From: Candidatus Bathyarchaeia archaeon
GTDB lineage: Archaea > Thermoproteota > Bathyarchaeia > 40CM-2-53-6
DNA length: 64,000 nt
Assembly: GCA_049521055.1 (NCBI GenBank)
Contig: JBEKPE010000001.1
Coordinates: forward strand, 44,837 to 108,836
Direction: 5' to 3'
The translations under genes were made by a program, and so were the position numbers. The notes under the pieces are model-generated. The model saw only the letters and a list, made by a program, of their open reading frames with translations. It did not search any database and was not told the origin of the DNA. Positions within the stretch are counted from its first letter, which is position 1; each line of letters begins with the position of its first letter. Of the stretch, positions 4,769 through 31,558 are shown piece by piece.

Positions 4769-6118
4769 CTATCGAAGCTGAGCTGCTACTTCCTTTACGG
4801 CGCCTTCGAAGATTTCCAGTCCTTCATCGATGATGTCGCGGGTTATGATGAGGGGGGGTGCGAAGCGCATCGAGGATTTTCCGGCAGTTATGATTGCTAA
4901 TCCTCGTTTGAAGCATTTGTTGGTTATGTCCTCCACTTCCTGAGCGGCTGGTTCCTTGGTTTCCGGGTCTTTGACGAATTCCACTCCGACCATCAACCCT
5001 TTGCCGCGCACGTCGCCTATTATGGGGTATTGCTGTTGCATTTCTTTCAGTCGCTTCATTAGGTACGTCCCTTGATGGGTCGCGTTCTCCATGAGCTTTT
5101 CATCCTTTATGATGCCAATCACTTGTAATGCGGCGGCGCAGGCTACAGGATTACCCCCAAACGTATTGGCATGAGAACCCCCTTCCCAATCCATGAGTTC
5201 CTGTTTAGCTACGGCGGCGCCGATTGGGAGGCCGGATGCAAGAGCCTTGGCGGTGGTTAGAATGTCAGGCGTTACGCCCCAGTGCTCTAAAGCGAACCAT
5301 CTACCGGTCCGCCCCATCCCAGATTGTATCTCGTCGTCAGCCAGTAGAATGTCATATTTGTCAAGTATTTTCTTCAAACGCTGGAAATAATCGTCGGGAG
5401 GAACCACGTAGCCGCTCTCGCCTTGAATTGGCTCCACAAACATTGCAGCAGTGTCTTCAGGAGGATGATATTTCTTGAGTACCTCTTCTTCTATGAAGTC
5501 GACGCACCACATGTCGCACTCCGGATACTTCAGCCCGAAGGGACAGCGGTAGCAGTAGGGATAAGGAACGTGGGTTACTTCTGGAACGAGCGGGAAAAAG
5601 TGTCTTCTCTGAACCGGCTTACTCGCAGTAAGCGCCATAGTTCCGAAACTTCTTCCATGAAACGCGCCGGTGTACGCTAAGAATAACGGTTTGCGAGTGT
5701 GCCAACGGGCCATCTTCATCGCGGCCTCGTTTGCCTCCGCACCGCTATTACAGAAGAACACTTTCTTAGGAAATGAACCAGGCGTAATCTTAGTCAGTTG
5801 CTCCCCTAGGTCAACGATTGGCTTATAGTAGAAATCGGTCCATGAATAGTGAATTAGTTTCTCAGCTTGATCCTTGATCGCTTTGACGACGCGCGGATGC
5901 GAATGCCCCACGGCCAAAACGACTAATCCCGAATTAAAATCTATGAACTCGTTACCGTCAACATCCTTAACGACGCATCCTGAACCAGAGTCTGCAACGA
6001 GAGGATACCAACGTACAACCGATTGCGACAAGATGGTCGCATCTTTCTGAAGCAATTCTCTCGCCTTAGGCCCGGGCGGAGTGACGACGATCTTATGTCG
6101 TTGAACTTTGGTCACCAT
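4769..6118 (-). CDS. class III PLP-dependent aminotransferase (GabT/ArgD-like)
   Basis: Aminotransferase class III architecture throughout (about 450 aa) with conserved-looking PLP-lysine region. Confidence 0.8.
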   Translation of the reverse strand: MVTKVQRHKIVVTPPGPKARELLQKDATILSQSVVRWYPLVADSGSGCVVKDVDGNEFIDFNSGLVVLAVGHSHPRVVKAIKDQAEKLIHYSWTDFYYKPIVDLGEQLTKITPGSFPKKVFFCNSGAEANEAAMKMARWHTRKPLFLAYTGAFHGRSFGTMALTASKPVQRRHFFPLVPEVTHVPYPYCYRCPFGLKYPECDMWCVDFIEEEVLKKYHPPEDTAAMFVEPIQGESGYVVPPDDYFQRLKKILDKYDILLADDEIQSGMGRTGRWFALEHWGVTPDILTTAKALASGLPIGAAVAKQELMDWEGGSHANTFGGNPVACAAALQVIGIIKDEKLMENATHQGTYLMKRLKEMQQQYPIIGDVRGKGLMVGVEFVKDPETKEPAAQEVEDITNKCFKRGLAIITAGKSSMRFAPPLIITRDIIDEGLEIFEGAVKEVAAQLR

Positions 6119-6256
6119 TATGAGTCACCGACTTGTTCCAACGCGAGCGCTTAGTCCGTGAATTGTAAAAGGCTTCCGTTCATCTCTCGTGCATAACACT
6201 GATGCATTGAGAGACAGGTTTCGTAGCTTTATGACAGAGCCGATATGTGGCCTCTA

Positions 6257-8113: not shown

Positions 8114-8211
8114 TCGCCCATGCGGTACGATTCGTAACGTTCATTCTGGACTCACGTATGCTTCTATTCGCAACCCGTAGACCCGGAGTTCAAGCTGTCT
8201 CAAAGACTGTC

Positions 8212-8320
8212 CATGTGTTGGAGGGGTGTCAAACACCCCCCTGTCGGCTGTCTTACACCCGTACCCTTCTTTTCAAGTGGGACCAAAATCCCACCCGTCC
8301 CCCCCAGTTTCGAACTTCCT
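8212..8320. repeat. conserved hairpin element copy A (GGGGTGT-caa-ACACCCC followed by CTGTCTTACACCCGTAC...GGGACC)
   Basis: About 60-100 nt similar to 55650-55735, and partially to 31663-31705. Confidence 0.6.
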
Positions 8321-8328
8321 GGTAGACC

Positions 8329-8718
8329 CTATATCATATGGGCTTCAGCCAACCCACGAAAGTGAGGGTCACCGGTAACGACCTTCCCCTGCCGGTCTCG
8401 CGCAGTCGAGAGAACAATTGAGTCAGCTAGGCCCCATCCCTGAACTTTTTTCTTCATCGCGACATCAGTCTTAGCCGCTTCAACGGCCAAATTCTCATCA
8501 AGTGGAATAAGCGCGCTTCTTGACTTGATGAATGCTCTTCTGAGTTCAGCTTTTTGTTCATCTTCCGTTTTCAGAATCTTCGCGTATGTCTCCGCCAGAC
8601 AAATTGAGGGTGTGAGTTTCTCATACGCTTCCGTGTCGATGATCTGTTTGACTTTTTGGCCGGCTTCGGTTCCCATGAAATATTCAAGCCATGCATAGGA
8701 ATCCATGATGTACCTCAT
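8329..8718 (-). CDS. vapC: PIN-domain toxin VapC
   Basis: PIN-domain-like sequence about 129 aa long. It overlaps the upstream small gene by 4 bp. Confidence 0.7.
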   Translation of the reverse strand: MRYIMDSYAWLEYFMGTEAGQKVKQIIDTEAYEKLTPSICLAETYAKILKTEDEQKAELRRAFIKSRSALIPLDENLAVEAAKTDVAMKKKVQGWGLADSIVLSTARDRQGKVVTGDPHFRGLAEAHMI

Positions 8719-16152: not shown

Positions 16153-16818
16153 CTACGTAACTACAGCTTGCTCTAAGGTATCGGCCCTCGCCTCAACCAA
16201 TTCGAGATTGAAAGTGTCTTCAAACTTCTTTCGAACCTGCTCTTTTACGTCACGGAGGTTCAGGTCTGTGCCGAGCAAGGCTTTCATCGAGGTCATGGTT
16301 GAACCAGAGAACCCGCACGGGTTGATCTTGTAGAAGTAATTTAAGTCCGTGTTCGCGTTGAGCGCGAATCCGTGAAAGCTTACCCAGTTTCTAATCGCTG
16401 CACCGATTGAAGCAATCTTCTTGCTACCCACCCACACACCAGTTTGCTCTCCTCGCCCCCCAGCGATGCCGAACTCCCTAATCGTCAGGATGAGTGTTTG
16501 CTCGATGTTTCTTAGGAATCCATGAATGTCTCGCTTTCTCTCATTCAAGTCTAGAATTGGATAACCCACTATCTGTCCCAAGCCGTGGTACGTCCACTGG
16601 CCGCCCCGTTCTATTCGGAATACTGGGACGCCATCGATTTGGGGAGGGATGTCACCAGAGACTGCTTTGCCTACCGTGAATACGTGTGGATGTTCCACGA
16701 GGATTAAGCTGTCCGGAATAAGTTTCCTTGCCCGAAGATCAACGAGCTTGCGCTGGAGTTCCCATACTTGTGCGTATTCTCGTTGGCCGAGGTCGAGTAG
16801 GTTTCCTTTCGTTGTCAT
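16153..16818 (-). CDS. lipB: octanoyltransferase LipB
   Basis: BPL/LPL catalytic domain. LILVEHPHVFTVGK is LipB-like. Confidence 0.8.
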   Translation of the reverse strand: MTTKGNLLDLGQREYAQVWELQRKLVDLRARKLIPDSLILVEHPHVFTVGKAVSGDIPPQIDGVPVFRIERGGQWTYHGLGQIVGYPILDLNERKRDIHGFLRNIEQTLILTIREFGIAGGRGEQTGVWVGSKKIASIGAAIRNWVSFHGFALNANTDLNYFYKINPCGFSGSTMTSMKALLGTDLNLRDVKEQVRKKFEDTFNLELVEARADTLEQAVVT

Positions 16819-18218
16819 TTCTGTAGGATGTGAATCGCTTTTCCTTTTGCTGCTTCCGCTGCCTCCATCACACTTTCTGGCAAAGTGGGGTGTGGGTGAA
16901 CTGTGAGTCCAATGTCCTCTAATGTTGCTCCCATTTCTATGGCGAGAGCTGCTTCGCTAATTAGGTCTGAGGCTTCGGAGCCAACTATGTGGACACCGAG
17001 CACTAGATCGGAGCTTTTGTCGGCGACTATCTTGGCGAATCCCTCGGTTTCGCCTGCGAGGAGTGCGCGTCCCAAGGCTGTAAATGGAAACTTGCCGACG
17101 ATTGGGTCGTAGCCTTTTTCTTTTGCTTGCGATTCGGTGAGGCCGACGGTTGCGATTTCAGGGTCGGTGAATATGACTCCAGGGATCGCGTGAAAGTCAG
17201 CTTCACTGCTCATTCCCGCGATAACCTCCGCAGCGACGATTCCTTCCTTGGATGCTTTGTGTGCGAGCATGGGTGGGCCTACTACGTCCCCTATCGCGTA
17301 GACGCCCGGTAAGTTGGTTTGCATTTTCTTGTTGACTTGAATGAACCCGTGCGAATCAGTTTGGATCCCGACTTTTTCCAGGCCGATTTCGTCGCTGTTT
17401 GGGCGTCTGCCTACGGTGACTAAGACCTTGTCAGCGTCAAATGCGCCTTCCTTTCCGTCCTCTAGGGTTGCGTAGATCTTACCGTCGCGAAATTCCTTCG
17501 CCTTGGATTTGACATGGTATTCAATGCCAAGTTTTCGAAGTGACCGTTCGACGACCCTGACTAGGTCGATGTCGGTTCCGGGGAGAAGTTGGTCTAACAT
17601 TTCGATTATGGTTACTTTGGTTCCAAGCTGGGCGTACATAGTTCCCATCTCCAATCCGGTCACTCCTCCCCCGATTATGGCCAACCTCTTGGGGACCTGT
17701 TGTAGTGACAATGCTTCGGTGGAGCTGATTATGCTGGTTCCGTTGAACTTGAAGGTAGGAAGGTCGTAGTAACGCGAACCCGTGGCTATGATGATGTCCT
17801 TTGCTTCGATGATTTCCGTCCCAGTCGTGCTCTTGACTTCGAGCTGGTTAGCTGCTATGAATTTCCCGGTTCCTTTTACGAGCTTGACGTTGTTTCCTTT
17901 GAGTAAGTAATCAATACCGGATACTAGGCGATCGACCACACCCTGTTTCCAAGCTTGCACTTTAGCAAAATCTACGCTGACTCCAGTTACCTCTAGGCCA
18001 ATCTGTTTGGCTGCTTCGACTCGCTGTTTTAGTTTAGCGACGCGGATAAGTGCCTTCGAGGGTATGCACCCAATGTTTAGGCATACGCCACCCAGCTTTT
18101 CTTTCTCTATGAGGACTGTTTCCTTCCCGAGCTGCCCGAGTCGTATGGCCGCAACATAGCCACCCGGTCCACTCCCAAGCACAGCAGCCTCGATCTTCTG
18201 AGTCATTCTAACCACCAA
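16815..18218 (-). CDS. lpdA: dihydrolipoyl dehydrogenase (E3)
   Basis: GSGPGGYVAA FAD motif, redox-active GGVCLNIGCIPSK and dimerisation domain. Confidence 0.9.
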   Translation of the reverse strand: MVVRMTQKIEAAVLGSGPGGYVAAIRLGQLGKETVLIEKEKLGGVCLNIGCIPSKALIRVAKLKQRVEAAKQIGLEVTGVSVDFAKVQAWKQGVVDRLVSGIDYLLKGNNVKLVKGTGKFIAANQLEVKSTTGTEIIEAKDIIIATGSRYYDLPTFKFNGTSIISSTEALSLQQVPKRLAIIGGGVTGLEMGTMYAQLGTKVTIIEMLDQLLPGTDIDLVRVVERSLRKLGIEYHVKSKAKEFRDGKIYATLEDGKEGAFDADKVLVTVGRRPNSDEIGLEKVGIQTDSHGFIQVNKKMQTNLPGVYAIGDVVGPPMLAHKASKEGIVAAEVIAGMSSEADFHAIPGVIFTDPEIATVGLTESQAKEKGYDPIVGKFPFTALGRALLAGETEGFAKIVADKSSDLVLGVHIVGSEASDLISEAALAIEMGATLEDIGLTVHPHPTLPESVMEAAEAAKGKAIHILQK

Positions 18219-18411
18219 ATTCAGATTTATGAAGCGAAATCATGGATTAAAATTGATGTTCCTGAAGGTAGGAAACAGAGCCGTCCATTCTATTTGCTAA
18301 CCTCAACTACCCGATTGCATGCAGAAATCTGCGGCGTATGGCAAAGCTACGCTAACCTGGTCTAGCTAGCGTTTAATGGTAGTCTAAAAACTGAGTTCAA
18401 ATTCAGTCGCC

Positions 18412-18434
18412 CGCACCATTAGACCCACACACAC
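18412..18434. repeat. palindromic repeat family copy R1 (CGCACCATTAGACCCACACACAC)
   Basis: Matches the GCGyACCAyTAGmCCCACACACAC consensus. Confidence 0.6.
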
Positions 18435-18437
18435 CGT

Positions 18438-18656
18438 TTACTGGTGTGGCAGGTAGACTACCGCTCCGATAGCGAGCGTAACAATTAGAATCACGGCGAA
18501 GGCAGCAGCGAACCTGCCCGGTGTCCATCTGATGCCGTGCGAAACCCATGTGGTGCCGCCATACTTCCAAGACAGAAGCGCGTAACCGATAATTCCAGCA
18601 ACAATCACAGCGGTTCCAAGGAAAACTAAATGCAGAGGATAACTCATCAAATTCAA
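18438..18656 (-). CDS. small membrane protein (hypothetical)
   Basis: Two hydrophobic segments and no homology recognised. Confidence 0.3.
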   Translation of the reverse strand: MNLMSYPLHLVFLGTAVIVAGIIGYALLSWKYGGTTWVSHGIRWTPGRFAAAFAVILIVTLAIGAVVYLPHQ

Positions 18657-18728
18657 AACATTTCACCTACCATTAATATGTTACAACTTGCTCTTACTGG
18701 TTTTCCTAGTTTTCTCAAATCAAAATCA

Positions 18729-18764
18729 GGTGTGTGTGCGCACAAGTGATGCCACACACACTAG
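18729..18764. repeat. palindromic repeat family copy R2 (GGTGTGTGTGCGCACAAGTGATGCCACACACACTAG)
   Basis: GTGTGTG / CACACAC arms. Confidence 0.6.
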
Positions 18765-18852
18765 AACTATCCCCCTAACGATTACCTTGTCATTGACGGA
18801 ACGATTACGCTAGATCTCATGCCTGACTTGCACCACGTTTTTCCGTGTCCCT

Positions 18853-19764
18853 ATGACCATTCTCCTCAATTTGGTGTGGAGAATGACAAGCAAACGAACT
18901 GCGTATGTAATTGCTGTTCTCCTAATTCTTAGTGCTGCGGTAAACATCATGCAGTTCACCCAGAGCTCAAACCCCCTGTCATTGTCGTTTAATTCTGGCT
19001 CGAATCAGACCGTTTCATATGAGCTTCAAAGTAGCTACAATGAACTATACAACCAATACGGAACACTATATTCTGAATACCAAACGCTTTCTCAGGAATA
19101 CGCACAATTCAAACAGGTGGCGTTAACTCCTCCCTATGTCTCCATATCCAAAGGAACGATCACATGGGTGTTCACCGACGTCAAAGGCGACACGATCACA
19201 TGGCAGCTGCCAATGGACACCTACATACATTACGCCTCAATGCAAAAACCAGTACAAGTCTTGTCGTTACAGACGACCTCGGGTACGGTAACGACTGACG
19301 ATGTACGACCATACATTCAACCTTCATTTTTCGCGAACAGTATTTCAAGTCTCACCGAAGGGAGATCGGACAAGGAATTTGTGAAAGAGGTCGACAACAT
19401 AAAGAATGAACTTGTCATTTATGGAACGAGTCTGGGTGAGGCGCCGTATCAATTTCCCGCCGAGACACTAACTGAAGGGACAGGGAAATGCGCCGATACC
19501 ACGATACTGATGGCCAGTATGCTAATCGCGGGCGATCGCGAAGCAAATTACAATTTCAATGTCTATGTGGAGTACGTCCAATTGAATCCTGACGGCACGC
19601 TCGTTTCAAATAGCAACTTACTCACCGACCCGAACCATGCTATAATCAAAGTGGTATTTGCCGACGGAACAGTTTGGAGCATAGAAACAACGACCAATTA
19701 TTTCTACACTTATTCCCAAGCTTACATAGGATGGCAATTTGACGTCACGTCGGTCAATGCGTGA
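18853..19764 (+). CDS. membrane-anchored transglutaminase-like (Cys-His-Asp) domain protein
   Basis: N-terminal TM. GTGKCADTTILMASML matches the GxCxDxA Cys motif, and NHAIIKVVFADGTVWSIETT supplies His/Asp. Confidence 0.45.
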   Translation: MTILLNLVWRMTSKRTAYVIAVLLILSAAVNIMQFTQSSNPLSLSFNSGSNQTVSYELQSSYNELYNQYGTLYSEYQTLSQEYAQFKQVALTPPYVSISKGTITWVFTDVKGDTITWQLPMDTYIHYASMQKPVQVLSLQTTSGTVTTDDVRPYIQPSFFANSISSLTEGRSDKEFVKEVDNIKNELVIYGTSLGEAPYQFPAETLTEGTGKCADTTILMASMLIAGDREANYNFNVYVEYVQLNPDGTLVSNSNLLTDPNHAIIKVVFADGTVWSIETTTNYFYTYSQAYIGWQFDVTSVNA

Positions 19765-19786
19765 CAAGCCATGAACGGTCGTCGTC

Positions 19787-19810
19787 GCGCACCAAGTATA
19801 CCACACACAC
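19787..19810. repeat. palindromic repeat family copy R6 (GCGCACCAAGTATACCACACACAC)
   Basis: Right half of the consensus. Confidence 0.5.
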
Positions 19811-20085
19811 TTCACCCGACATCGGACGACGGTTGGAATGGGTTTTTTTACTCTAGAGCTTTTGACGCGTAGCTTCCTTCCTAGAGAAAAGCTACCGGAG
19901 TAGCTTTGTATTCTTTCCAGTTGGAGCTCCCCGTAGCTTTCATGGAGCTACGCGCTCATGAGAATGCAATTGGCCTACTCGCGCGTGACGAGTGACGCCG
20001 TGGATGCCTCATTCTCTATTGATTCTATTTATTCACGAGAAAGAGACATAGGCTAGAATCGCCGCAAGAAGGGAGTAGATGAATA

Positions 20086-20511
20086 ATGGTTATGCCTGAC
20101 AACAAACTCAATGCGATCAACACATATTACTCACATGTGTCGCGGCTTTTTGTATCCAATTATGCAACGTTCTTCGCGGTGTATCTTGCCTTCTTGGCTC
20201 TGTTGTACAACGTCTCTTTTAGGACCGAAGTTTCAACGAGTTTCAGGAATGGATTCTTCTATGTCAGCGTCTTGATTATGTTCTTTGAATTATTGTTGCT
20301 CTACCGAGGGCTGCAATTTGGCAGAGTCCTGGATTTGATCGATAAGGAGTGGGCAGACCTGGGGATCCTTCATGTTAGAGAACATTTCTGGCCCGAGAAA
20401 TCACGCATCGGACAATTGAACCGGCTTTATCGCACAGTGTCTGTTCCCTTGGCAATGATCCTCACGATTTGTATTCCCGTGCTGAGTTGGTTCTTTCTCT
20501 TGCGTAGCTAA
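20086..20511 (+). CDS. membrane protein (hypothetical, about 3 TM)
   Basis: Hydrophobic helices only. Confidence 0.4.
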   Translation: MVMPDNKLNAINTYYSHVSRLFVSNYATFFAVYLAFLALLYNVSFRTEVSTSFRNGFFYVSVLIMFFELLLLYRGLQFGRVLDLIDKEWADLGILHVREHFWPEKSRIGQLNRLYRTVSVPLAMILTICIPVLSWFFLLRS

Positions 20512-20530
20512 GATGAAGTTAGTGGCACAA

Positions 20531-20567
20531 TTAGTGTGTGTGCGTCGAGTGGTGGGCACAGACACAA
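20531..20567. repeat. palindromic repeat family copy R3 (TAGTGTGTGTGCGTCGAGTGGTGGGCACAGACACAAG)
   Basis: Diverged copy. Confidence 0.5.
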
Positions 20568-20587
20568 GATGATCCCAAGAAGGCGGA

Positions 20588-20950
20588 TTGGTAGCGAAAG
20601 ACTTACAGCCTTATCCACTGCGAAATCGGAATCATGGTGAGGAACGGATGCCAGCCACGAAGAGTAGGCACCGACGCAGTAAGCCAGCCAGAAAACGAGA
20701 GTCAAAGCTGAAGATACTAAACTTGACCCTCATGCAATGGTTGGGGTTTGTCTTCATGGGTTTTGGCGTCTATGTGATGTTGTATGGAATCGTGTTGATT
20801 CCGTCGAGTAGCGTTTCAATTGGACCAATCTCAATTACTGACATTCCTGGACGTTCTGCGGCGGCAATTGGCGTAGGCGCGTTCTTCGAACTAGTCGGAC
20901 TAGGGTTGGTTTCAGGAAAGATCCACATTGGTGAGCTTTCTTTCGATTGA
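20588..20950 (+). CDS. small membrane protein (hypothetical)
   Basis: Basic N-terminus and 2 TM. The start may be downstream. Confidence 0.35.
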   Translation: MVAKDLQPYPLRNRNHGEERMPATKSRHRRSKPARKRESKLKILNLTLMQWLGFVFMGFGVYVMLYGIVLIPSSSVSIGPISITDIPGRSAAAIGVGAFFELVGLGLVSGKIHIGELSFD

Positions 20951-20960
20951 CTAGATATTC

Positions 20961-22187
20961 TTGAAAACGGACCATGCGTGGAATGGGAAGCAGATGACTT
21001 CGCCCGACATATCTAAACGGACAATCGAAGAGAGCCCAGCAGGGAGAAAAGCCAATCTGCTATTGGAAGATTCACCTGAGCTCATTTACATTTGGTTTGG
21101 AGGATTACTGATACGGAGTTCGACGGCCGAACCTGACAATTTGGAGCAACTGAGAGAGAAACTTCGGTCAACGCTGACAAGCCACAAGGAAGTGAACGAA
21201 GTGTCGGACCTCAAACCAAAGAGTAGTTTGACCTGGTATAGCACAACGGCTATAGGAAGTACCTTTCCCCCATTAGTCGCAACTATTCGAGTGCCAACCA
21301 GCGACCAGCCGTTCGCCAGCGCGATTAAGGACAATTCATCCGCGGGAATCGCTCTCGCTGAAAATTTTGCTTTCGTTACCGACGGTCAGCTGCTATATGT
21401 CGGAGCAGAGTGCAATTCCCATGAGGAGTTTCGAGGCATTTTACTGGGAAGCCCTGATGTTCGTGAAAAAATCATAGGACTAATCAAAGAGGCAGTAGAG
21501 TGCGAAACCGTCGGACCGACACCTGCCCAGATTCCGTTTCTTGTTGGGCACTCGAATGCGCCAGACTGGGTCAAGAGCACTGAAGCGGTTTTCGTGAGAC
21601 TCGAAGAGATGGCAACCGTCAAAGGCGATATGGCTAGTGTTTACGATTTGACGAACGATCGCTTGAGCACATTCTATGACATAAGGTATGATGCCGATAT
21701 GACGTTGAAACAAGCGCGTGAACTTGGGGAGGATCAAACGCAGTTACTCGATCAGCTTCTGATTTTGCTAAATATGCGATGGCTTCATCCGATTCAACGC
21801 AGGCGGGTTACAAACGACATCAGAAGGAATATCGCGAACATACTAAGGCTCCTTTCTCTTCACGGCTCCACCTCCGGCCGAGTCTCTGAGGATGTTGCTG
21901 ATTTAGATGCTAAGATTGCACGAGAAAACATTCTATTTGACGCTCCTCAGAATAGCTCCTCAAACGAGGCCTTAACGAAGCTTGGGTGGAAAAAACACTC
22001 GGAGGCAGCAATTGTTGACAGAGACTCGGTTTTGAGTATTGTTGAGCATGTAAGAAGCGAAGTGCAGGTTAGCAGAAATTTGTCTGTCACAATTTGGGCT
22101 GCATTGATAGGAGCTGTCATTGGGTCGATATTGACCATCATTGGCACCTATTTCTTCTCGTTGACAAAGCTCTTTGCAGGATTGTAA
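20961..22187 (+). CDS. ORFan 408-aa protein with C-terminal tail-anchor TM helix
   Basis: Soluble body with no recognised motif, ending in LSVTIWAALIGAVIGSILTIIGTYFF. Confidence 0.5.
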   Translation: MKTDHAWNGKQMTSPDISKRTIEESPAGRKANLLLEDSPELIYIWFGGLLIRSSTAEPDNLEQLREKLRSTLTSHKEVNEVSDLKPKSSLTWYSTTAIGSTFPPLVATIRVPTSDQPFASAIKDNSSAGIALAENFAFVTDGQLLYVGAECNSHEEFRGILLGSPDVREKIIGLIKEAVECETVGPTPAQIPFLVGHSNAPDWVKSTEAVFVRLEEMATVKGDMASVYDLTNDRLSTFYDIRYDADMTLKQARELGEDQTQLLDQLLILLNMRWLHPIQRRRVTNDIRRNIANILRLLSLHGSTSGRVSEDVADLDAKIARENILFDAPQNSSSNEALTKLGWKKHSEAAIVDRDSVLSIVEHVRSEVQVSRNLSVTIWAALIGAVIGSILTIIGTYFFSLTKLFAGL

Positions 22188-22234
22188 CAAGCGGTTCTAG
22201 TGAAGCAAACCTCGGAAAAGAGCCCGACGAAATG

Positions 22235-23161
22235 CTAAGGCATCTTAATTGGGCGTCTTAGAAATCTCCAACATGCAATCCCGGCCGAAAACAGTGCCAC
22301 TATTCCAAAGATTAAACCTAGCAGGCCAGGCAGTAGGGTGGGAAGAGTGAGGACGAATGCGAGAATGTAGGCAGCTGCCCCCTTCTTATCGGACTTTGCA
22401 CCCAAAATCGCACATTCCATAGCTCCAGAAACCAAGTAAGTCATAGACGCGGCGAACCATGGCGCTGGCTTTTGGGAAGCCGTAGTGCTCTCTTGCGCAA
22501 GTCTATCTTTCAACACCCAATTCGTCGCCGTGACTTTTTGAATTACTCTTTCCAACAGGATAAAACCAGGTAGAAACCACATGAGCACCACCAAGCCCGC
22601 TAGATCCGGCGTTGGTCCTATCGCATTTTGCGGAGCCACTACGGCGTAGTAGAGATAGCTTTCGAGGATGAATGTGAAAAGACTAAGGGCAGTGGCGCAA
22701 GCAGCTGACGTCCCCAGAAGGAGCAAGTCGGATTCCGAGGCCTGATACTCGATCAGCGAAAGATACCATCGGACGATCCTACGGCCGGCAAAGGCACCAG
22801 CCGCTGTAAATATGAGTGCAATGAAGACAGTGGGAACGGGCAGCCGAGGGAAGAAATCTCGGACTAGTATGAGCGGCGCCAGTCCCATGTAAAAGAATAT
22901 TCCAATTGTGAAACACAACCAACCCCTGACTCTCTCTCGACCAGTTTCGTCGAATAGAATTGCTCCGCGTATGTAACCGACATAGAATGGGTACAGAAGT
23001 CCTGAGATTAGGAGAGGGATGAATACAAGAAATACGCCCACGCTGCCGATCATTGTCTGCAAAATCGCAAAAACTAGGTTCGTGATCCCTAGCATGAACA
23101 GAAAAGCGTCGTCAAGGGCTTTGAGTCGACCTTCAAGCCGCGGTCTAGTTAGAGAGGACAA
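22235..23161 (-). CDS. polytopic membrane protein (hypothetical)
   Basis: Roughly 8 hydrophobic segments. Confidence 0.5.
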   Translation of the reverse strand: MSSLTRPRLEGRLKALDDAFLFMLGITNLVFAILQTMIGSVGVFLVFIPLLISGLLYPFYVGYIRGAILFDETGRERVRGWLCFTIGIFFYMGLAPLILVRDFFPRLPVPTVFIALIFTAAGAFAGRRIVRWYLSLIEYQASESDLLLLGTSAACATALSLFTFILESYLYYAVVAPQNAIGPTPDLAGLVVLMWFLPGFILLERVIQKVTATNWVLKDRLAQESTTASQKPAPWFAASMTYLVSGAMECAILGAKSDKKGAAAYILAFVLTLPTLLPGLLGLIFGIVALFSAGIACWRFLRRPIKMP

Positions 23162-23349
23162 AATCCCACGAATACGATTGATTTAGGCTGGCGCATATTA
23201 ATAGACGGAGCTGTGAATTTTGAATCGCCGTCGAGTCTAGAGAGGTGCATCTTTGTCTGACGTGTGGCCCCTAATATCCACTAACGAAAACGTGTTTCCC
23301 CGCGGAAATCGCACCTAAAGGGGATGACAGATCTTCCGGTTGCGATCAC

Positions 23350-24186
23350 TCAATTTGGTTTGTTTTCGATCTCGGTTTCAACCCACTTCCCTTTGATCGA
23401 GAAACCGAGATTTCCGTATCTCTCGCTAATCCGGATCGCGCAGATTCGTATCATAAGAGGCAGGAAGTTCGTCACTTCAAGCGCGTCTTTGTTACTAAGC
23501 TGGGTTACGCCAGCCTGCCCCTTCCCCACTACGACGTGCGCGCAACGATCACGTAGTTCGTGAATGTAATTTCTCAAAAGTCTTGGGCTAAACCGCAGAT
23601 TGCGGAATTCTTCTTGAAAACGGTCCAAGAATTTGTTCAGTTCCGTGCCGAAGTCTCCCTCAGATTTGAACTCCGACTCTAAGAGCTTGTACAAAGAGAG
23701 ATACTGATATTGCAAGGGGATATGAGGATCTCTTGCATCAGTAAGAAGTCTTAGTTTATTGCGAATTGAATGAGTTGCTACGAATACGTTGCGAACGTTG
23801 TCGAAGTCCGGCTTACCTCCTATGAATTCCTTCACGGCAATGCCCGTGCGCCGTGGCTTGCCCTCTTCTATGAAAGTCCACCAATTAATCTCCCAAAGAG
23901 TAGCCCTGTTGTCGTATGTAATTCGAAGCACCGAGAGCATGTGTTCTTTGAGAGATTGCACGATGGATAAATCCTCTTCCGGAATCTTTTCCTCAGCGCA
24001 ATTTGGAACGGTGATTCTGAAGAACAGTATCCTACTATTGGCTTCATCAGCAAAAAGCGCAACCTCGTAGTCCTTCTCTCTCGTTTTAACTGTGATTCGC
24101 GCTGCGGGTGTTTTGTTCTCATCATCTTCGTATTGTTCGAGTATAGGTTCAAGCGGATAATAGATGAAGCAAGTCTTCATAATCAT
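23350..24186 (-). CDS. hypothetical protein with candidate HEPN-like Rx4H motif
   Basis: YIHELRDRCAHVV contains R-x4-H followed by a helical region. HEPN assignment is inferred from this alone; no other family recognised. Confidence 0.45.
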   Translation of the reverse strand: MIMKTCFIYYPLEPILEQYEDDENKTPAARITVKTREKDYEVALFADEANSRILFFRITVPNCAEEKIPEEDLSIVQSLKEHMLSVLRITYDNRATLWEINWWTFIEEGKPRRTGIAVKEFIGGKPDFDNVRNVFVATHSIRNKLRLLTDARDPHIPLQYQYLSLYKLLESEFKSEGDFGTELNKFLDRFQEEFRNLRFSPRLLRNYIHELRDRCAHVVVGKGQAGVTQLSNKDALEVTNFLPLMIRICAIRISERYGNLGFSIKGKWVETEIENKPN

Positions 24187-24433
24187 ACTCTAGCTTTCGC
24201 TGAACTAAACCTATTCGTGCGAACCATTGAATTGATATCGAGGGAACATTTCAGAGACAGAATGTTGATTCCTTAGCCTTAGGCAAAACTCTATGCCTGA
24301 TTCTTTTGCGTCTTTGGCAAATGCAATTCTCGCAGGAGATTGATCATTTCATTCCGTTCGCGGTACTTTACCCAGAAGTCGTTGCAAACCATTTTATTTC
24401 GAGTGATTTGTCATTTTCTTAGTAAAGAATACA

Positions 24434-25138
24434 TTGGCGACCCAAATGAGTTCCCCGACAAGTTTCCTTGTTCAAAATACGTTGTTCTACAGATGGGAGC
24501 ATACGCCGCGTAGTGGGCGAGCGGTAGTCATCTTGTACGGCGGAGCAATGCTTGATGCCCGCTGCTCTGGCACCTACAACGTCTACTCTGAGGCGTTTAG
24601 TATGAAACCTGTCAACGAGCAGGCATGGGTTAGTGAGCTTTTCGATTACGGATTAGATGTGGTGGCCCTCAGGACTGGTTCCACTTACTCAGGTTTCGAG
24701 TGTTATAGGGCGGGAGATACTTGGGTCAGGGATCTGATTGACCACCTGCAAGAGTTGCACGGAGGAGAGGTTTGTCTCTTCGGGCATAGTGCGGGGGGTT
24801 TGATTACCGCCTATGAGATTCAAGAACGGACAAGCATTACCGCAGCCGTTGTGGTGAGCGCCCCGATGCTAAGTGAACCCGATGCCCTATTCGAAACTCC
24901 GACCCATGCCTCGAATGTTAAGGCAAACCTACTTCTACAATGGGGGCAACAGGATCAACTTTGGACCAGGCGAATGCCTGAATACTACCAGAACGCGCAA
25001 GGCTGCGGCCACACCATTCAGAGAGACGACACCTACCCCGGCAATCTGCATGATACCTACTTCACCCAAGCCGCGCAAACACAAAGGAACAATGCGAAAG
25101 CCTTCCTAACCAACGCACAGGAGAACCTAGGTGACTAG
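24434..25138 (+). CDS. alpha/beta-hydrolase fold protein
   Basis: LFGHSAGG nucleophile elbow (GxSxG). Confidence 0.6.
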   Translation: MATQMSSPTSFLVQNTLFYRWEHTPRSGRAVVILYGGAMLDARCSGTYNVYSEAFSMKPVNEQAWVSELFDYGLDVVALRTGSTYSGFECYRAGDTWVRDLIDHLQELHGGEVCLFGHSAGGLITAYEIQERTSITAAVVVSAPMLSEPDALFETPTHASNVKANLLLQWGQQDQLWTRRMPEYYQNAQGCGHTIQRDDTYPGNLHDTYFTQAAQTQRNNAKAFLTNAQENLGD

Positions 25139-25178
25139 GTCCATCGTAAATCCGCCCGTCGTCGTTAACCGTTATTTT

Positions 25179-25210
25179 TAGTGTGTGTGCGCACCACTAG
25201 CCCACACACA
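25179..25210. repeat. palindromic repeat family copy R4 (TAGTGTGTGTGCGCACCACTAGCCCACACACAC)
   Basis: Best full-length copy. Followed by TTTT. Confidence 0.65.
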
Positions 25211-25278
25211 CTTTTACAAGCCACGCTAACGCTGGGAACGACGACAGTGGCAGACGACGATATGAACTGTGTTTGGAT

Positions 25279-26148
25279 TTATTCCCCCCAGGCAGCATAA
25301 CAGAAGCCAACCGTATCGCTAAGCCTCGCAAGAGGATGCTTCCAATGAATTCTGCCCACGGGACTCCGCCCATATGACCCTTCGGGATCGTAGTTTTCAG
25401 CAATCGCTGACAATTCAAGATGGGAAAGCCCTTTGAAGAATTTCCTCATAGAGTTTGCCTCTTCCTCGACCGCCTCTCTGATGTCATTATCCCGAGAGGA
25501 ATCTTGTGGGATTTCGTCTGGATCATAACCCTCTTGATAGCCATAGTACTCGTCGTAGAGTGCCTCCTCAAGACCGGAGAGTGAACCAACTTCATATGTG
25601 TACGATGCTATTTCATGACTATTATCACAATGTGGACAGTACTTCCATATTGCCTGTTCATCACTGATGTCAGCGATTTGGTAGTGTGTCGTTGAGCCGG
25701 GCACCAAATAGAGAATATAATATGCGAAGCGATTGCAGTTGTGACAAATCGGAAAACGCAACGGGAAGAGTTCGATCTCATTAGAGTCAATGTCCACGAG
25801 AGCAATTTCATATTTCTTCCCGCGCGTCTGTATGGAGTCAACATAATCGTCAATGTTCTTGTAATTGATATTGGTAGTTACATCAAAATTGGTCATAGTA
25901 CGACCGTTTGTCTTAAGTCCGGTAAAATCCGCCTTCGCTCCCGAGTCAAGCAGAGGTTCCAAATAGTACTGATCTTTGTAACGGTCGTAGAAGATTAATT
26001 CTCCTCGGGTCCCGACCACTATACGTTTATCGAGTGGTGACTTGTCAAGAATCCTCATGGCGGAGTCAAGTCCATAACGTTCGTAGGTTGCAAACACGTG
26101 AGCTCTCAAATCTCTTAACTGCGTAGCAGGATGAGATCTCAAAGTCAA
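25279..26148 (-). CDS. ORFan protein with CxxC...CxxC zinc ribbon
   Basis: CHNCN...CPHCDN and an acidic C-terminal region. Confidence 0.45.
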   Translation of the reverse strand: MTLRSHPATQLRDLRAHVFATYERYGLDSAMRILDKSPLDKRIVVGTRGELIFYDRYKDQYYLEPLLDSGAKADFTGLKTNGRTMTNFDVTTNINYKNIDDYVDSIQTRGKKYEIALVDIDSNEIELFPLRFPICHNCNRFAYYILYLVPGSTTHYQIADISDEQAIWKYCPHCDNSHEIASYTYEVGSLSGLEEALYDEYYGYQEGYDPDEIPQDSSRDNDIREAVEEEANSMRKFFKGLSHLELSAIAENYDPEGSYGRSPVGRIHWKHPLARLSDTVGFCYAAWGE

Positions 26149-26357
26149 GGCGAACCTCCTTACTTTCAGTCTTATTGCCCTATTATCTTCTTATTTGCGA
26201 CTCCTCACAGTTAAGCTCAAGATTCAATTCAATTGACTCCAGAAAACAAAGAGTCGATGACTACTTTCCTAAGGCAACTTCGTCATTCTCGGAAGTCTTG
26301 AGCCTGTTCCATCGAGAATCGAAGGCGACGCCTCTCATGCCCCTGATTTGGATTCTT

Positions 26358-26390
26358 GGTGGGTGTGCGTACCATTAGACCCACACACAC
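26358..26390. repeat. palindromic repeat family copy R5 (GGTGGGTGTGCGTACCATTAGACCCACACACAC)
   Basis: Near-identical to R1 over ACCATTAGACCCACACACAC. Confidence 0.65.
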
Positions 26391-26567
26391 AAAATTGCAT
26401 GAACACCGACGGTTCAGGAGTTGCCTACGCGTTCCTATATTCCATCCTTCCGTTCGTCGCTCGCTATTTCATTTAGAGGCCACACCTTTGGATGAGCGTG
26501 GCCGTGGAAGATTTGGGAAAGAATAGTTTGGTTACCTTGCCTTTCGGTTCACTAAGTCCGCGTTCAG

Positions 26568-27116
26568 TTGGACGCAATCGCGGGATCAATTTCTGTACCT
26601 AAATACCTAACGGCAAGCAGTCGGTCTGGCAGAGGCTTAATGCCATTTCATGTTAGGCACGCCATTGGCGAGGATCACGCTTCAATTCTTGAGATAGCGA
26701 GATCCCTGAGCCCCGAATGGTTTAGTGAACTGGGAATCAAGGATATCGCTAGAGACCTTCAGATCGAAAAGGGATTGATAGCCGAGGAAGATGGGAAGGC
26801 TGTCGGTTTTGTGATCTACTGTGCCAAAGACGACAGGACGGCGGAGTTGAGCTGGATTGGCGTTCGTCCAGAAATTCACAGAAAGGGCATCGGTCGAGCC
26901 CTTGTGAGCGCCCTTGAAGCCTCGCTAGCACAACGCGGGTTTCGGACCCTTGAAGTATCTACAGTCGCTGCAACGATCGAAGACGAATCCTACTCTAGAA
27001 CAAGAAGCTTCTATCGCGCCGTTGGGTTCTCGGATGTTCAAATTGATATGAAATGGTATCCGAGTGGGGCTGATAGGCTCCTGCTGAAGAAGCCTCTATC
27101 CAGTCAAGCGAAGTAA
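26568..27116 (+). CDS. GNAT family N-acetyltransferase
   Basis: IHRKGIGRALVSALE motif A. Confidence 0.75.
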   Translation: MDAIAGSISVPKYLTASSRSGRGLMPFHVRHAIGEDHASILEIARSLSPEWFSELGIKDIARDLQIEKGLIAEEDGKAVGFVIYCAKDDRTAELSWIGVRPEIHRKGIGRALVSALEASLAQRGFRTLEVSTVAATIEDESYSRTRSFYRAVGFSDVQIDMKWYPSGADRLLLKKPLSSQAK

Positions 27117-27174
27117 GTTCTCTCAGAATAACGGCAGGACTTCATAAGTCCATTCTGAGCGTTTAGAGCGTCAT

Positions 27175-28431
27175 TTAGTCCGTCTCGAGAAGAAGGAGCT
27201 TTGGATCTTCTAGGTATTGTTTGATTGCGTTTACGAAACGGGCTGCCATTGCGCCATCCAATACTCTGTGGTCGAAGGATAGGGAGAGGTAGGTCATGTC
27301 GCGGATTGTGATTTGGTTGTCTTTGACGACTGGCCGTTTGGTGATTTTATGTAGCCCAAGTATCGCGACTTCTGGGTAATTGATTATTGGGGTAGCGAAC
27401 ACTCCGCCGATTCCACCTACGTTGGTTATTGTAAAGGTGCTTCCCTGAACTTCATTCAACGCCAACTGACCTGCATGAGCTTTCTCGCTCAGGGTTGCAA
27501 TTTCTGTTGCGAGTTGAGTTATCGATTTGCGATCGGCATCTTTGACCACCGGAACTACTAACCCCGACTCAGTGTCAGTCGCTATTCCAATATTGTAGTA
27601 TTTCTTGAGCACTATCTCCTCTTTTTCGTCGTCCAAACTGGAGTTTAGGTACGGGTACTGTTTCAGTGCCGGAATTAGCGCCTTCATGACGAAGGGCAGG
27701 TAGGTCAACTTTACTCCACGCTTCTCAGCGGCAGCCTTCGCCGTCTCTCTCAGGTGGACGACTTCGGTCATGTCAACTTCGTCCACGTGGGTTACTTGTG
27801 CCGCCGCATTCTTGGATTTGAGCATATGTTCCGCAACTTTTCTTCGGATTCCGCGTAACGGAACCCGCTCCTCAACACCACGCGGCCCAGAAGTGGTCAC
27901 GGTTACAGCCGCGACCGCTCCCCCTAGCTGTTTGAACCGTTGCACGTCCTCGTCTGTAATTCGGCCTCCGCGGCCAGTTCCCTGGACAACAGATAGGTCT
28001 ACGCCAAGATCTCTCGCAAGCTTTCGAGTCGCAGGTGTCGCTAAGACTTCTTCGGGTTTCCGTGAAACTTGAGGGGGGGTTGTTAGTGGGATTTCTTGGG
28101 GCCTAGCAATCGTGGGTGTTTTCGCGGGTGTGGGAAGAGATGGTTTCGTGGCGACGGGGGTTCTTTCTGATCCCGGAACACTTGGTTGTCCACCTTTCTC
28201 TTCTATTGAGAGGAGAGCTTGTCCTACCTTGACGACTTCGCCCTCTTTGGCCATGAGTTTCTGGATTGTTCCTTGCTTGGGGGAAGGTATCTCTACGTTG
28301 ACCTTATCGGTCATGATCTCGACGAGGGGCTGGTTCTCCTTAATCGAGTCTCCTTCTTTCACAAGCCATTTGACAACCTCGCCTTCAGCCACGCCTTCAC
28401 CTATGTCCGGAAGGCGAAACTCGTAGACCAA
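27175..28431 (-). CDS. 2-oxoacid dehydrogenase E2 dihydrolipoamide acyltransferase
   Basis: N-terminal lipoyl domain (IMTDKVNVEIPSP), PSBD segment and C-terminal catalytic DHRVLDGA. Confidence 0.9.
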   Translation of the reverse strand: MVYEFRLPDIGEGVAEGEVVKWLVKEGDSIKENQPLVEIMTDKVNVEIPSPKQGTIQKLMAKEGEVVKVGQALLSIEEKGGQPSVPGSERTPVATKPSLPTPAKTPTIARPQEIPLTTPPQVSRKPEEVLATPATRKLARDLGVDLSVVQGTGRGGRITDEDVQRFKQLGGAVAAVTVTTSGPRGVEERVPLRGIRRKVAEHMLKSKNAAAQVTHVDEVDMTEVVHLRETAKAAAEKRGVKLTYLPFVMKALIPALKQYPYLNSSLDDEKEEIVLKKYYNIGIATDTESGLVVPVVKDADRKSITQLATEIATLSEKAHAGQLALNEVQGSTFTITNVGGIGGVFATPIINYPEVAILGLHKITKRPVVKDNQITIRDMTYLSLSFDHRVLDGAMAARFVNAIKQYLEDPKLLLLETD

Positions 28432-28451
28432 TTAGTATCACTTTGTCCTGG

Positions 28452-29426
28452 TTAGAAGTTGTGGACTTTTTCGATTGCTGTTAGGACCCGAGTGGCGTTG
28501 GGCATGTATTCGTCTTCGAGAACGTATGGGAACGGGACGTCGAAGCCTGCTACCCGTAGGATAGGCGCCTTCAAACTTAGAATGCAACGTTCCGCGATCT
28601 GTGCCGCTATTTCTGCGCCGAACCCGCAGGTCTTGCATGCTTCGTGTAGAATCACAACCCTTCCTGTTTTCTTAACTGAATTGATGATTGTTTCGATGTC
28701 GAAGGGTACGATGGTTCTGATGTCAACCACTTCCACATTGATGCCTTTGGCCGCCGCAAGTTCCGCCGCTTCCAATGCTACGTGGAGCATCGCCCCGTAA
28801 GCGAACACGACTACATCATTACCCTCGCGAGCGATGTTGGCCTTGCCTATGGGGACTGTGTATTCCTCGTCGGGTACCTCTCCGCGGACTGTTCGATAGA
28901 TTTTCTTCGGCTCAAGAAACATGACAGGATCGGGATCGCGCATTGCGGATGTGAGTAGGCCTTTGGCGTCGTAGGGTGTTGCTGGAATCACAACTTTGAG
29001 TCCCGGTGTGTGGGCGAAGAAGGCTTCAGTGCTTTGAGAATGGTAATGGCTGCCCCTGATACCGCCCCCGTAAGGGGTCCTGATCACGACTGGGGTTGTG
29101 TATTGGCCTCCGGATCGGTATCGGAACTTGGCAAGTTCGCTTTGGATTTGGTCGAACCCTGGGTAAATGAAATCCATGAACTGAATCTCCGGTACAGGCC
29201 TTAACCCATAGAGGGCCATTCCGATGGAGACCCCGATGATTCCTGATTCGGCGAGGGGTGTGTCGATGACGCGGTTTGGGCCAAATTCTTGGTATAATCC
29301 TTCAGTTGCTCGAAAAACGCCGCCGTTGATGCCTACATCTTCACCCAGTATTACCACCTTGTCGTTTCGCGTCATCTCTTCCCGTAACGCGTGGTTGACT
29401 GCTTGAACCACGTTCAGAACGGTCAA
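28452..29426 (-). CDS. 2-oxoacid dehydrogenase E1 beta subunit
   Basis: Transketolase-like pyrimidine-binding and C-terminal domains. Confidence 0.9.
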   Translation of the reverse strand: MTVLNVVQAVNHALREEMTRNDKVVILGEDVGINGGVFRATEGLYQEFGPNRVIDTPLAESGIIGVSIGMALYGLRPVPEIQFMDFIYPGFDQIQSELAKFRYRSGGQYTTPVVIRTPYGGGIRGSHYHSQSTEAFFAHTPGLKVVIPATPYDAKGLLTSAMRDPDPVMFLEPKKIYRTVRGEVPDEEYTVPIGKANIAREGNDVVVFAYGAMLHVALEAAELAAAKGINVEVVDIRTIVPFDIETIINSVKKTGRVVILHEACKTCGFGAEIAAQIAERCILSLKAPILRVAGFDVPFPYVLEDEYMPNATRVLTAIEKVHNF

Positions 29427-30511
29427 TTATGGTCCCCTTGCTGCTTCTCTTCGCGCAGCTCTCTCAACTGTTCTTCGAGATTCCACGGCATTTCGGCGTA
29501 CACATCTGTGAATAGGGTTTCGAGTGCGGGTTTCGGTAGTTTCTCAGCGTGCTGGACCGCTTCGTCTATTTCGCGGTTTGTTTCATCCTGTGTCTTCTTT
29601 TCTTCCGCTTCGCTCCACATTCCCTTCCATTCCAGGTACTTTCGGAATCGTACCAGTGGATCTCGTTTCTGCCATTCTTCTAGTTCTTGTTGTGAACTGT
29701 AGCGTTTTGGATCATCCGAAGACGAGTGTGCGCCCATGCGGTAGGTGACGGCTTCAATGAGAGTTGGGCCTCCACCCTTACGTGCTTTTTCGACGGCGTC
29801 TTTTGTGGTGCGATAGACAGCGAGAATATCGTTTCCGTCGACGCGAATACCTTCGAACCCGTAGGCCTGCGCCTTGATGGCTATAGTCTCAGAAGCGGTC
29901 TGTCGCTCGACCGGGACGGAAATGGCCCAATGGTTGTTTATGCAGAAGAATACGGTTGGAGTCTTGTATACGCCGGCGAAATTCATCCCCGTATGAAAAT
30001 CGTTTTCAGACGTGCCCCCGTCTCCGAAGTAAGTCAGCGTCACTATCGGGTCTCCTTTGATCTTCGCTGCGAGGGCCACGCCAACTGCCTGTGGGAGTTG
30101 CGTTGCTATGGGTGCGGATCCCGTAACGTAATTAGCGGTCTTGACGCCGAAGAGATTGGTCAGCTGTCGACCTTTCTGAACGTCTTCAGCATTAGCAAAG
30201 TATTGGTCGAGTAGTTGATTGAGTGTGATGCCGCGTAGAAGCATTGAACCTATTTCGCGGTATGCGGGGAAAACCCAGTCTTCCGGTTTCAAAGCATAGG
30301 CGCTTCCAATATGCGCAGCTTCCTGCCCCAAACATCCAATGTAGAAACCTATGCGTCCCTGTCGTTGCAATTGTAACCCGCGAGTATCCAGGTTTCTCGT
30401 CAGAACCATTACTCGGTAGAGCCGCTTCAACTCGTCTTTGGGGATGTCTGGCTCCATTTTCGCGACTGACTCACCGCTAGGCTTGATAACCTGCAGTAAC
30501 TCGAGAGTCAA
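29423..30511 (-). CDS. 2-oxoacid dehydrogenase E1 alpha subunit (TPP-dependent)
   Basis: TPP-binding GDGG...N motif region. The stop overlaps the E1beta start. Confidence 0.9.
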   Translation of the reverse strand: MTLELLQVIKPSGESVAKMEPDIPKDELKRLYRVMVLTRNLDTRGLQLQRQGRIGFYIGCLGQEAAHIGSAYALKPEDWVFPAYREIGSMLLRGITLNQLLDQYFANAEDVQKGRQLTNLFGVKTANYVTGSAPIATQLPQAVGVALAAKIKGDPIVTLTYFGDGGTSENDFHTGMNFAGVYKTPTVFFCINNHWAISVPVERQTASETIAIKAQAYGFEGIRVDGNDILAVYRTTKDAVEKARKGGGPTLIEAVTYRMGAHSSSDDPKRYSSQQELEEWQKRDPLVRFRKYLEWKGMWSEAEEKKTQDETNREIDEAVQHAEKLPKPALETLFTDVYAEMPWNLEEQLRELREEKQQGDHN

Positions 30512-30625
30512 ACCTTAACCCCTATTGAGGCTGCGTGAAACGAAGGCAAAGCCGAACTAGGGCTTGTAAAGCTTACTCTTACAACGGGTCGTCTGAGAAA
30601 CTGCTTGCTTCAATGCTGTTAAAGA

Positions 30626-31558
30626 TCAGTTAATGGCTACCATTTTCTTCTTACGAATTAGCGCTTCGAGGAAGAACTCTCCAGCCCTGTATGAGCTCCT
30701 AACAAACGGGCCCGACGCCACGTACAAAAATCCTAGGTCATCAGCAAGGCGCTTGTACCGTTCGAACGTTCCCGGGCTGACATATTCGGCTACTGGAATA
30801 TGGCCCTTCGATGGTCGAAGGTACTGGCCAAGGGTTAGAACGTCTACATCTGCTCGCCTCAAGTCTTCCATGGTCTTGACGATATCACTCTCGGTTTCGC
30901 CCAAGCCGAGCATAATAGATGATTTCGAGTATACTGAGGAGTCGACTTCCTTGATGTGCTTGAGAACTCGAAGCGATTGTTCGTAGGTTGCTCTTGGATC
31001 TCGCACTTTCGGTGTTAGCGTTTTGGTGGTTTCGATGTTATGCGCAACCACTTCGGATCCCGCGTCTACCACTTTCTTCACGTCGTCCAGATTTCCTTGA
31101 AAGTCGGGTATGAGGACTTCAGTGATTACGTTTGGATCTCGCTTCTTGATCGCTCGTATTGTGGATGCGAAGTGTCCCGCACCGCCATCGGGAAGGTCAT
31201 CTCGGTCGACGGATGTTATCACCACGTACCGTAATCCCAAGTCCGCGATGGCATCCGCAACCTTCACCGGCTCGAAAAGATCCAACGCGCCGTGCGGGTT
31301 TCCGCTATTAACCATGCAAAAGCGGCAACCACGAGTACATGTGTCACCCATCAGCATGAAAGTTGCCGTTCCGCCGCCCCAACATTCAGCCACGTTCGGA
31401 CAGTGCGCTTCCTCACAGACGGTGTGGAGGCTATGATTTCGCAGGAGACCTTTGATCTTCGCGTAATTGTCGCCCGACGGAGCCCTCACACGTAACCAAT
31501 CCGGCTTCCCCTTTGGCTCAACATCTTGAATCTGGATCACGTGCGAGTATCTGGGCAT
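30626..31558 (-). CDS. lipA: lipoyl synthase LipA
   Basis: CEEAHCPN auxiliary cluster and CTRGCRFC radical-SAM motif. Confidence 0.9.
   Translation of the reverse strand: MPRYSHVIQIQDVEPKGKPDWLRVRAPSGDNYAKIKGLLRNHSLHTVCEEAHCPNVAECWGGGTATFMLMGDTCTRGCRFCMVNSGNPHGALDLFEPVKVADAIADLGLRYVVITSVDRDDLPDGGAGHFASTIRAIKKRDPNVITEVLIPDFQGNLDDVKKVVDAGSEVVAHNIETTKTLTPKVRDPRATYEQSLRVLKHIKEVDSSVYSKSSIMLGLGETESDIVKTMEDLRRADVDVLTLGQYLRPSKGHIPVAEYVSPGTFERYKRLADDLGFLYVASGPFVRSSYRAGEFFLEALIRKKKMVAIN

Follow-up and report, generated by a model that had tools for sequence, protein, structure and literature searches.

A MauJ-like protein of Bathyarchaeia with a predicted HEPN-fold domain and a conserved R-x4-H motif

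HEPN ribonucleases (RNases) are central to prokaryotic immunity, where they include Cas13, Csm6/Csx1, Abi proteins, RnlA, and HepT. Does a short R-x4-H motif in an archaeal hypothetical protein mark another such enzyme, and does that protein work with the membrane protein encoded beside it? The locus that raises these questions is a 278-amino-acid (aa) open reading frame (ORF) on the minus strand, at positions 23350..24186 of a 64,000-nucleotide stretch of a Candidatus Bathyarchaeia archaeon genome (contig JBEKPE010000001.1, positions 44,837 to 108,836), here called the window. An earlier note on this DNA had read the ORF as a candidate HEPN-like RNase effector next to a membrane partner. We found that the HEPN-like part of this interpretation stood, on the basis of a predicted fold and conserved motifs, whereas the pairing with a membrane protein was not conserved and that part fell.

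The MauJ-like gene, its predicted fold, and its conserved residues

The gene is real and its family is small, because the product matched an NCBI entry (hypothetical protein ABSD99_00370 [Candidatus Bathyarchaeia archaeon]) with 100% identity over 276 aa, 60 homologues were found in one search with E values to 1e-184, and 268 clusters emerged at E<=1e-3 when 1.84 billion representative proteins were searched with a profile. The translation includes LLRNYIHELRDRCAHVVVGKG. The true start is probably the third codon, an ATG at 24180 that would give 276 aa, since the family alignment opens at MKTC and the NCBI model agrees. The main features of the gene are as follows.

23350..24186, minus strand: gene for the MauJ-like two-domain protein (ORF, NCBI identity, 60 homologues, Pfam MauJ match)
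23812..24186, minus strand: N-terminal alpha+beta domain, residues 1 to 125, predicted as a seven-stranded antiparallel sheet and a long helix at 70 to 90
23407..23805, minus strand: predicted C-terminal HEPN-fold domain, residues 128 to 260
23536..23553, minus strand: R-x4-H, the predicted catalytic motif R212-D-R-C-A-H217 at the end of helix 3 (from conservation and placement as in the HEPN definition)
23665..23679, minus strand: E-x3-[KR] motif E170-S-E-F-K174 in helix 2, the putative second HEPN active-site element (from conservation and PMC3710099)

The only library family that matched the protein was Pfam MauJ (PF17419, "methylamine utilization protein MauJ"), over residues 160 to 253, which span helices 2 to 4 of the HEPN domain (E=4.3e-5, 24.8 bits). 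Although 38 of 40 aligned relatives matched this model (E<=0.1; best E value, 1.1e-8), the window protein itself lies under the gathering score of 28 bits, and it is therefore best named MauJ-like. MauJ is already named in Pfam and is absent from PADLOC v2.0.0. PADLOC-DB v2.0.0 gave no match at E<=1 for the MauJ-like protein or for the membrane protein and the 408-aa protein encoded nearby, and NCBIfam and PHROGs gave nothing for the MauJ-like protein. Sequence and profile searches with it found no HEPN relative among PDB chains.

We built an AlphaFold2 model from a 40-sequence alignment (mean predicted local distance difference test score [pLDDT], 86.3). Residues 1 to 117 of the model form a seven-stranded sheet with a single long helix (70 to 90), and the C-terminal domain has helices at 128 to 150 (helix 1), 158 to 173 (helix 2), 204 to 216 (helix 3), and 232 to 260 (helix 4). 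This is the all-alpha four-helix core of two alpha-hairpins that characterizes HEPN; the earlier note had made its call depend on such a core, and the model places one within residues 128 to 260. HEPN superfamily members made up more than 20 of the top 60 structural matches of the model. The lower-ranked matches included Csx1, HepT 5yep, Csm6, AbiA, LAS1L, the sacsin HEPN domain, AF0298, and YutE, as well as the C-terminal domains of kanamycin and lincosamide nucleotidyltransferases. Foldseek against the PDB returned no match below E=0.01, and the weak matches were only to the N-terminal domain. A profile-profile comparison by hhalign, run without secondary-structure scoring against 120 HepT/DUF86 proteins, a single HEPN family, was not significant (P=0.049, probability 1%); in this alignment, R-D-x-C-A-H was set on R-d-k-L-I-H and the LP of the last helix was aligned.

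The model and the alignments also carry features described for HEPN domains. The R-x4-H motif is placed as in the HEPN definition, with helix 3 stopping at residue 216 and H217 coming next; the earlier note had likewise put the motif in a predicted helical C-terminal region. An N, D, or H is usual right after the conserved HEPN Arg (PMC3710099), and position 213 is mostly D or N. In many HEPN families, helix 2 bears another acidic residue near the motif, usually as E-x3-[KR] (PMC3710099), which here corresponds to E170-x3-K174 in helix 158 to 173. HEPN domains characteristically carry an insert between helices 2 and 3, and Csx1 has a beta-hairpin that immediately follows the motif (PMC3710099). 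The model has both: a loose, poorly conserved insert at 174 to 203, made up of two short helices and a short pair of strands, and a beta-hairpin at 218 to 227, between helices 3 and 4. Because the fold and four independent features of motif and placement go beyond the short motif, we consider that the C-terminal domain very probably belongs to the HEPN fold.

Conservation was counted in an alignment of 152 full-length family members, and position 174 was scored in the 40-sequence alignment A1. Since R212 and H217 were each kept in 151 of the 152 relatives, the R-x4-H motif noticed earlier in the single ORF is not a matter of chance. Within and around it, C215 was present in 149 and A216 in 143 sequences, and position 213 was D in 131 and N in 13 (144 D/N). 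E170 was kept in 150 sequences, the remaining 2 having D, and P157 also in 150; position 174 was K or R in 40/40. On these counts, the family signature consists of E-x3-[KR] and, some 40 residues further on, R-[DN]-x-C-A-H. The essentially invariant Cys215 within the motif is unusual for HEPN. The N-terminal half has conserved residues of its own (Y9, P14, D21, R57, E81, H82, and R88).

With this model, the MauJ family would gain a fold and a predicted active site as a family of a known superfamily, and a Pfam family without a function would also get a likely role. The claim is modest, adding a new family inside a well-known superfamily and no new principle. We found no relevant paper linking MauJ or PF17419 to HEPN in the searchable literature, a search that did not extend to subscription journals, so earlier recognition is possible.

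Proposed activity and related HEPN systems

We propose that the gene product is a cytoplasmic, stand-alone protein in which an N-terminal sheet-plus-helix domain is joined to a C-terminal HEPN domain. The latter has all elements of the active-site signature, with E170-x3-K174 in helix 2 and R212-D-x-C-A-H217 where helix 3 ends. If it works as characterized HEPN enzymes do, the protein would be a metal-independent endoribonuclease, and on this analogy we regard RNase activity as likely. Two HEPN domains would dimerize such that their R-x4-H motifs meet in a composite active site, as in RnlA, HepT, and Csm6, with H217 acting as the general base and R212, D213, and E170 assisting. Because no antitoxin or partner gene is conserved alongside the MauJ-like gene (see below), control would have to be built in, and the N-terminal domain would either hold the nuclease off until a trigger arrives or recruit the RNA substrate. 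We favor this model of a solo, self-regulated HEPN endoribonuclease as a whole, if with some caution.

The protein may serve in antiviral or intragenomic conflict through abortive-infection-like RNA cleavage, as the family's patchy distribution, its position in variable regions, and its frequent defense-gene neighbors suggest. Defense or conflict is the role we find most likely, though as a claim it is plausible and no firmer than that. A broader view, that MauJ-like proteins are overlooked autonomous HEPN immune effectors of archaea and bacteria in which a novel N-terminal sensor or RNA-binding domain gates an RNase with an invariant Cys in its motif (R-D-x-C-A-H), is at present rather doubtful. 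If it were true, the mauJ of methylotroph mau clusters would also be an HEPN RNase-type passenger or regulator. The solo RNase model itself would bring the candidate defense genes an archaeal-bacterial solo HEPN family with an uncharacterized N-terminal domain, and the MauJ-like protein, at about 275 aa, would represent a small, self-contained putative RNase.

The alternative that survives best is that the protein is an inert or non-nuclease HEPN-fold protein, such as a nucleotide or ligand binder, a regulator, or a scaffold, which would echo both the name "methylamine utilization protein MauJ" and the HEPN substrate-binding partners of nucleotidyltransferases. Certain HEPN domains are not nucleases (PMC3710099), the sole named family match is to a family without an assigned function, and HEPN motifs do not usually contain a Cys such as Cys215. 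Yet non-catalytic HEPN domains typically lack R-x4-6-H (PMC3710099), whereas the R, H, and helix 2 Glu are near-invariant here. Moreover, by the most frequent neighbor families, no methylamine dehydrogenase or nucleotidyltransferase genes lie beside the 63 loci described below, and none lie in the window block that holds the gene. We consider a non-nuclease protein unlikely.

The solo RNase model can be set against the closest known systems, among which are the HepT/DUF86 (PF01934) toxins of MNT-HEPN pairs (PDB 1wwp, 8xdj, 7ae2, 5yep, and 1jog), the anti-phage toxins RnlA and LsoA (RNase LS), and AbiV and other single-gene HEPN abortive-infection proteins. In contrast to HepT, the MauJ-like family has no conserved neighbor and no MNT antitoxin gene beside any of its loci, and the 25 Pfam families seen most often in 150 neighbors included no nucleotidyltransferase family. 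The Tyr of the HepT RX4HXY motif, its AMPylation site, is not kept: the family has H-V/I-x, the residue two positions after the His being an unconserved V, K, R, or Y; the sequence similarity to HepT is not significant; and the 125-residue N-terminal domain, the post-motif beta-hairpin, and the motif Cys are extra. AbiV typically lacks the motif His and uses an alternative one (PMC3710099). It also lacks the N-terminal sheet domain of the MauJ-like protein, which had no sequence match to AbiV and no PADLOC match. Unlike the Csx1/Csm6 CARF-HEPN effectors, the MauJ-like protein lacks both a CARF (Rossmann-like) fold and a consistent CRISPR context, with Cas1 near just one MauJ-like locus. As to Pfam MauJ itself, neither the window block nor the commonest families of the 150 neighbors included mau-type genes.

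Distribution and genomic neighbors

The family has a scattered, patchy distribution over archaea and bacteria. Among 185,579 species genomes we found 12 family loci, which fall in Bathyarchaeia (two paralogues in one metagenome-assembled genome [MAG]), Nanoarchaeota, Chloroflexota (Dehalococcoidaceae and Anaerolineaceae among them), Geothermobacter, Bdellovibrio, Nitrospirota, Thermoanaerobaculia, and a gammaproteobacterium; the homologue search added Methanobacterium and Bradyrhizobium. For comparisons of context, 88 loci with a relative of the MauJ-like gene (numbered with an L below) were collected from genomes and metagenomes and reduced to 63 non-redundant loci. The phage, plasmid, and IMG/VR collections contained no relatives of the protein. 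The two paralogues in MAG SPRUCE 232 (Bathyarchaeia; L011 and L012) are 49% and 47% identical to the window protein. Because only internal gene fragments occur in the middle of contigs in L022 (residues 55 to 179) and L081 (residues 159 to 262), some gene copies seem to be decaying.

Several loci are defense-island-like, and the gene is often near anti-phage genes. A PglX-type methyltransferase lies beside the gene in L020 and an HsdR_N-type nuclease in L018; HNH and Mrr_cat occur in L008, FRG and AbiJ_NTD4 in L010, and an integrase in L004. A scan of 150 neighbors also found mad2, HEC-06, bSEFIR, type I methyltransferases, Cas1, and SMEK, together with many housekeeping genes. On the side of the L020 gene away from PglX, a 489-aa protein (7221-8690, plus strand) has the sequence GIRSKYVHGS, an R-x4-H near its C-terminal part; it had no Pfam or PADLOC match and may be a second HEPN candidate, one that Pfam does not support.

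Within three genes on either side at the 63 loci, no neighbor family recurred save one Dsr1-related pair. In L009 (833-9650), a lambda-type terminase (GpA) region is followed further on by the MauJ-like gene, a Dsr1 SIR2 ORF (323 aa), and a Dsr1 C-terminal ORF (937 aa), and the locus looks like a defense hotspot in a prophage-like region. In L012, from another Bathyarchaeia MAG, a 1134-aa protein (2591-5995, plus strand) is encoded 6 bp before the MauJ-like gene (6001-6849, plus strand). This protein matches the Dsr1 C-terminal part at residues 184 to 1078 and is homologous to the 937-aa protein of L009; it has no SIR2 and begins with an unrelated helical N terminus of about 180 aa, in which Pfam found nothing when a possible HEPN was considered. 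One possible reading of L012 is an effector swap, another a two-gene system; SIR2-less Dsr1-type sensors may, in some lineages, have taken over a MauJ-like protein as their effector.

These two loci, with the MauJ-like gene directly preceding a split Dsr1 in one and tightly following a SIR2-less relative in the other, are what favors a second alternative, namely, that the protein belongs to a larger defense system, notably to Dsr1-type sensors, as an effector or accessory subunit, and that the window copy is an orphan. The arrangement was seen in only 2 of the 63 non-redundant loci, no Dsr1-like gene lies near the window gene, and unrelated systems are often adjacent in defense islands. We judge this alternative improbable.

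The remaining question is that of the membrane partner. The neighbors were as the earlier note had described them:

22235..23161, minus strand: polytopic membrane protein with about 8 hydrophobic segments, a downstream neighbor and not a demonstrated partner
20961..22187, plus strand: 408-aa tail-anchored protein with a single hydrophobic segment, at the C terminus

The first had no family-library match (Pfam, PADLOC, NCBIfam, PHROGs). The Joint Genome Institute (JGI) model of it begins at M23 (23095), probably the annotated start, which makes the intergenic gap about 254 bp, not 188 bp. A TATA-like TTAATAT lies about 35 to 40 bp upstream of the TTG start of the membrane gene and suggests a promoter of its own.

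Transmembrane (TM) neighbors of the MauJ-like gene were at background frequency. Downstream same-strand genes encoded at least 1 TM segment in 8 of 32 cases (25%, versus 27% of all ORFs in the loci) and at least 3 in 3 of 32 (9%, versus a 9% background). A 79%-identical orthologue (L001/L002) has another downstream gene, whose 369-aa product has a single TM segment and a linker rich in Pro and Thr. The downstream TM proteins of the family loci show no relationship among themselves or with the window membrane protein. The membrane-protein family is in turn tiny (8 homologues), and on the three contigs examined that carry such homologues, no MauJ-like gene occurred within 4 kb. Because the pairing is not conserved, with TM genes at background level, unrelated TM proteins, and homologues that occur apart, the reading of an RNase effector with a membrane partner is not supported. 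The homologues of the membrane protein have variable contexts, lying near Cas1 (L089), after genes for a helicase-nuclease, a metallophosphatase, and an SMC/SbcC-like ATPase (L090), or among many small ORFs after a helix-turn-helix gene (L091).

A two-gene toxin or abortive-infection module of the HEPN RNase and the membrane protein, perhaps with the 408-aa tail-anchored protein, is thus largely refuted as a conserved system and, as a lineage-specific pairing, very improbable: the two window genes are on the same strand, 188 to 254 bp apart, in one block of ORFans, and a same-strand downstream TM protein is also found in L004/L005, L010, and L001/L023, but those proteins are mutually unrelated, the close orthologue has a different neighbor, the homologues of each are found without the other, and the TATA-like sequence hints at separate transcription.

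We also saw no sign of an antitoxin. The 19 tightly linked upstream ORFs shared no similarity in phmmer comparisons, which rules out a conserved small upstream antitoxin, and the window has no plausible small ORF upstream of the MauJ-like gene. An overlapping downstream 278-aa ORF in L021 was considered as a paralogue and ruled out. The absence of a conserved partner leaves the stand-alone HEPN protein as our preferred reading of the gene.

The ORFan block and its palindromic repeats

The MauJ-like gene lies in a distinct part of the window, with the following features.

18219..27174, no strand: ORFan-rich block of lower GC content holding the MauJ-like gene, a candidate genomic island (from GC content, gene content, and repeats)
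18412-18434, 18729-18761, 19788-19810, 20532-20570, 25180-25211, and 26358-26390: copies of a palindromic element

The block (18.2 to 27.2 kb, about 9 kb) consists of ORFans, an alpha/beta hydrolase, and a GNAT acetyltransferase, and its GC fraction is 0.44 to 0.49, compared with 0.50 to 0.54 outside. On either side lie the parts of a 2-oxoacid dehydrogenase/lipoylation cluster (16153-18218 and 27175-31558, all on the minus strand), such that the block separates LipA, E1alpha, E1beta, and E2 from E3 and LplA. Because about 9 kb of lower-GC genes, most of them ORFans, interrupt the cluster, the arrangement suggests an operon into which an island was inserted. The window has no tRNA gene, and no integrase was seen among the ORFs of the block.

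A further ORFan of the block (289 aa; 25279-26148, minus strand) carries LRDLRAHV (R-D-x-x-A-H) near its N terminus along with two CxxC pairs, likely a zinc ribbon, and matched no family. We considered LRDLRAHV as a motif related to that of the MauJ-like protein and rejected it as a chance likeness, since hhalign gave a probability of 3% and aligned a segment elsewhere.

The palindromic element is intergenic, has the form GTGTGTGTG-CGCAC-N8-10-CC-CACACACAC, and occurs in full and half copies, in this block only within the window. The sequence CCACACACAC occurs 5 times in the window, always inside the block, where 0.07 occurrences would be expected by chance. Rfam found no RNA family in the block, the element included. 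Strong hairpins form in two full copies (z, -3.6 and -5.3), and the outermost copies (18412-18434 and 26368-26390) are direct repeats, identical at 22/23 positions and 7956 bp apart. The elements could be repetitive extragenic palindromic (REP)- or miniature inverted-repeat transposable element (MITE)-like elements, terminators, or island boundaries.
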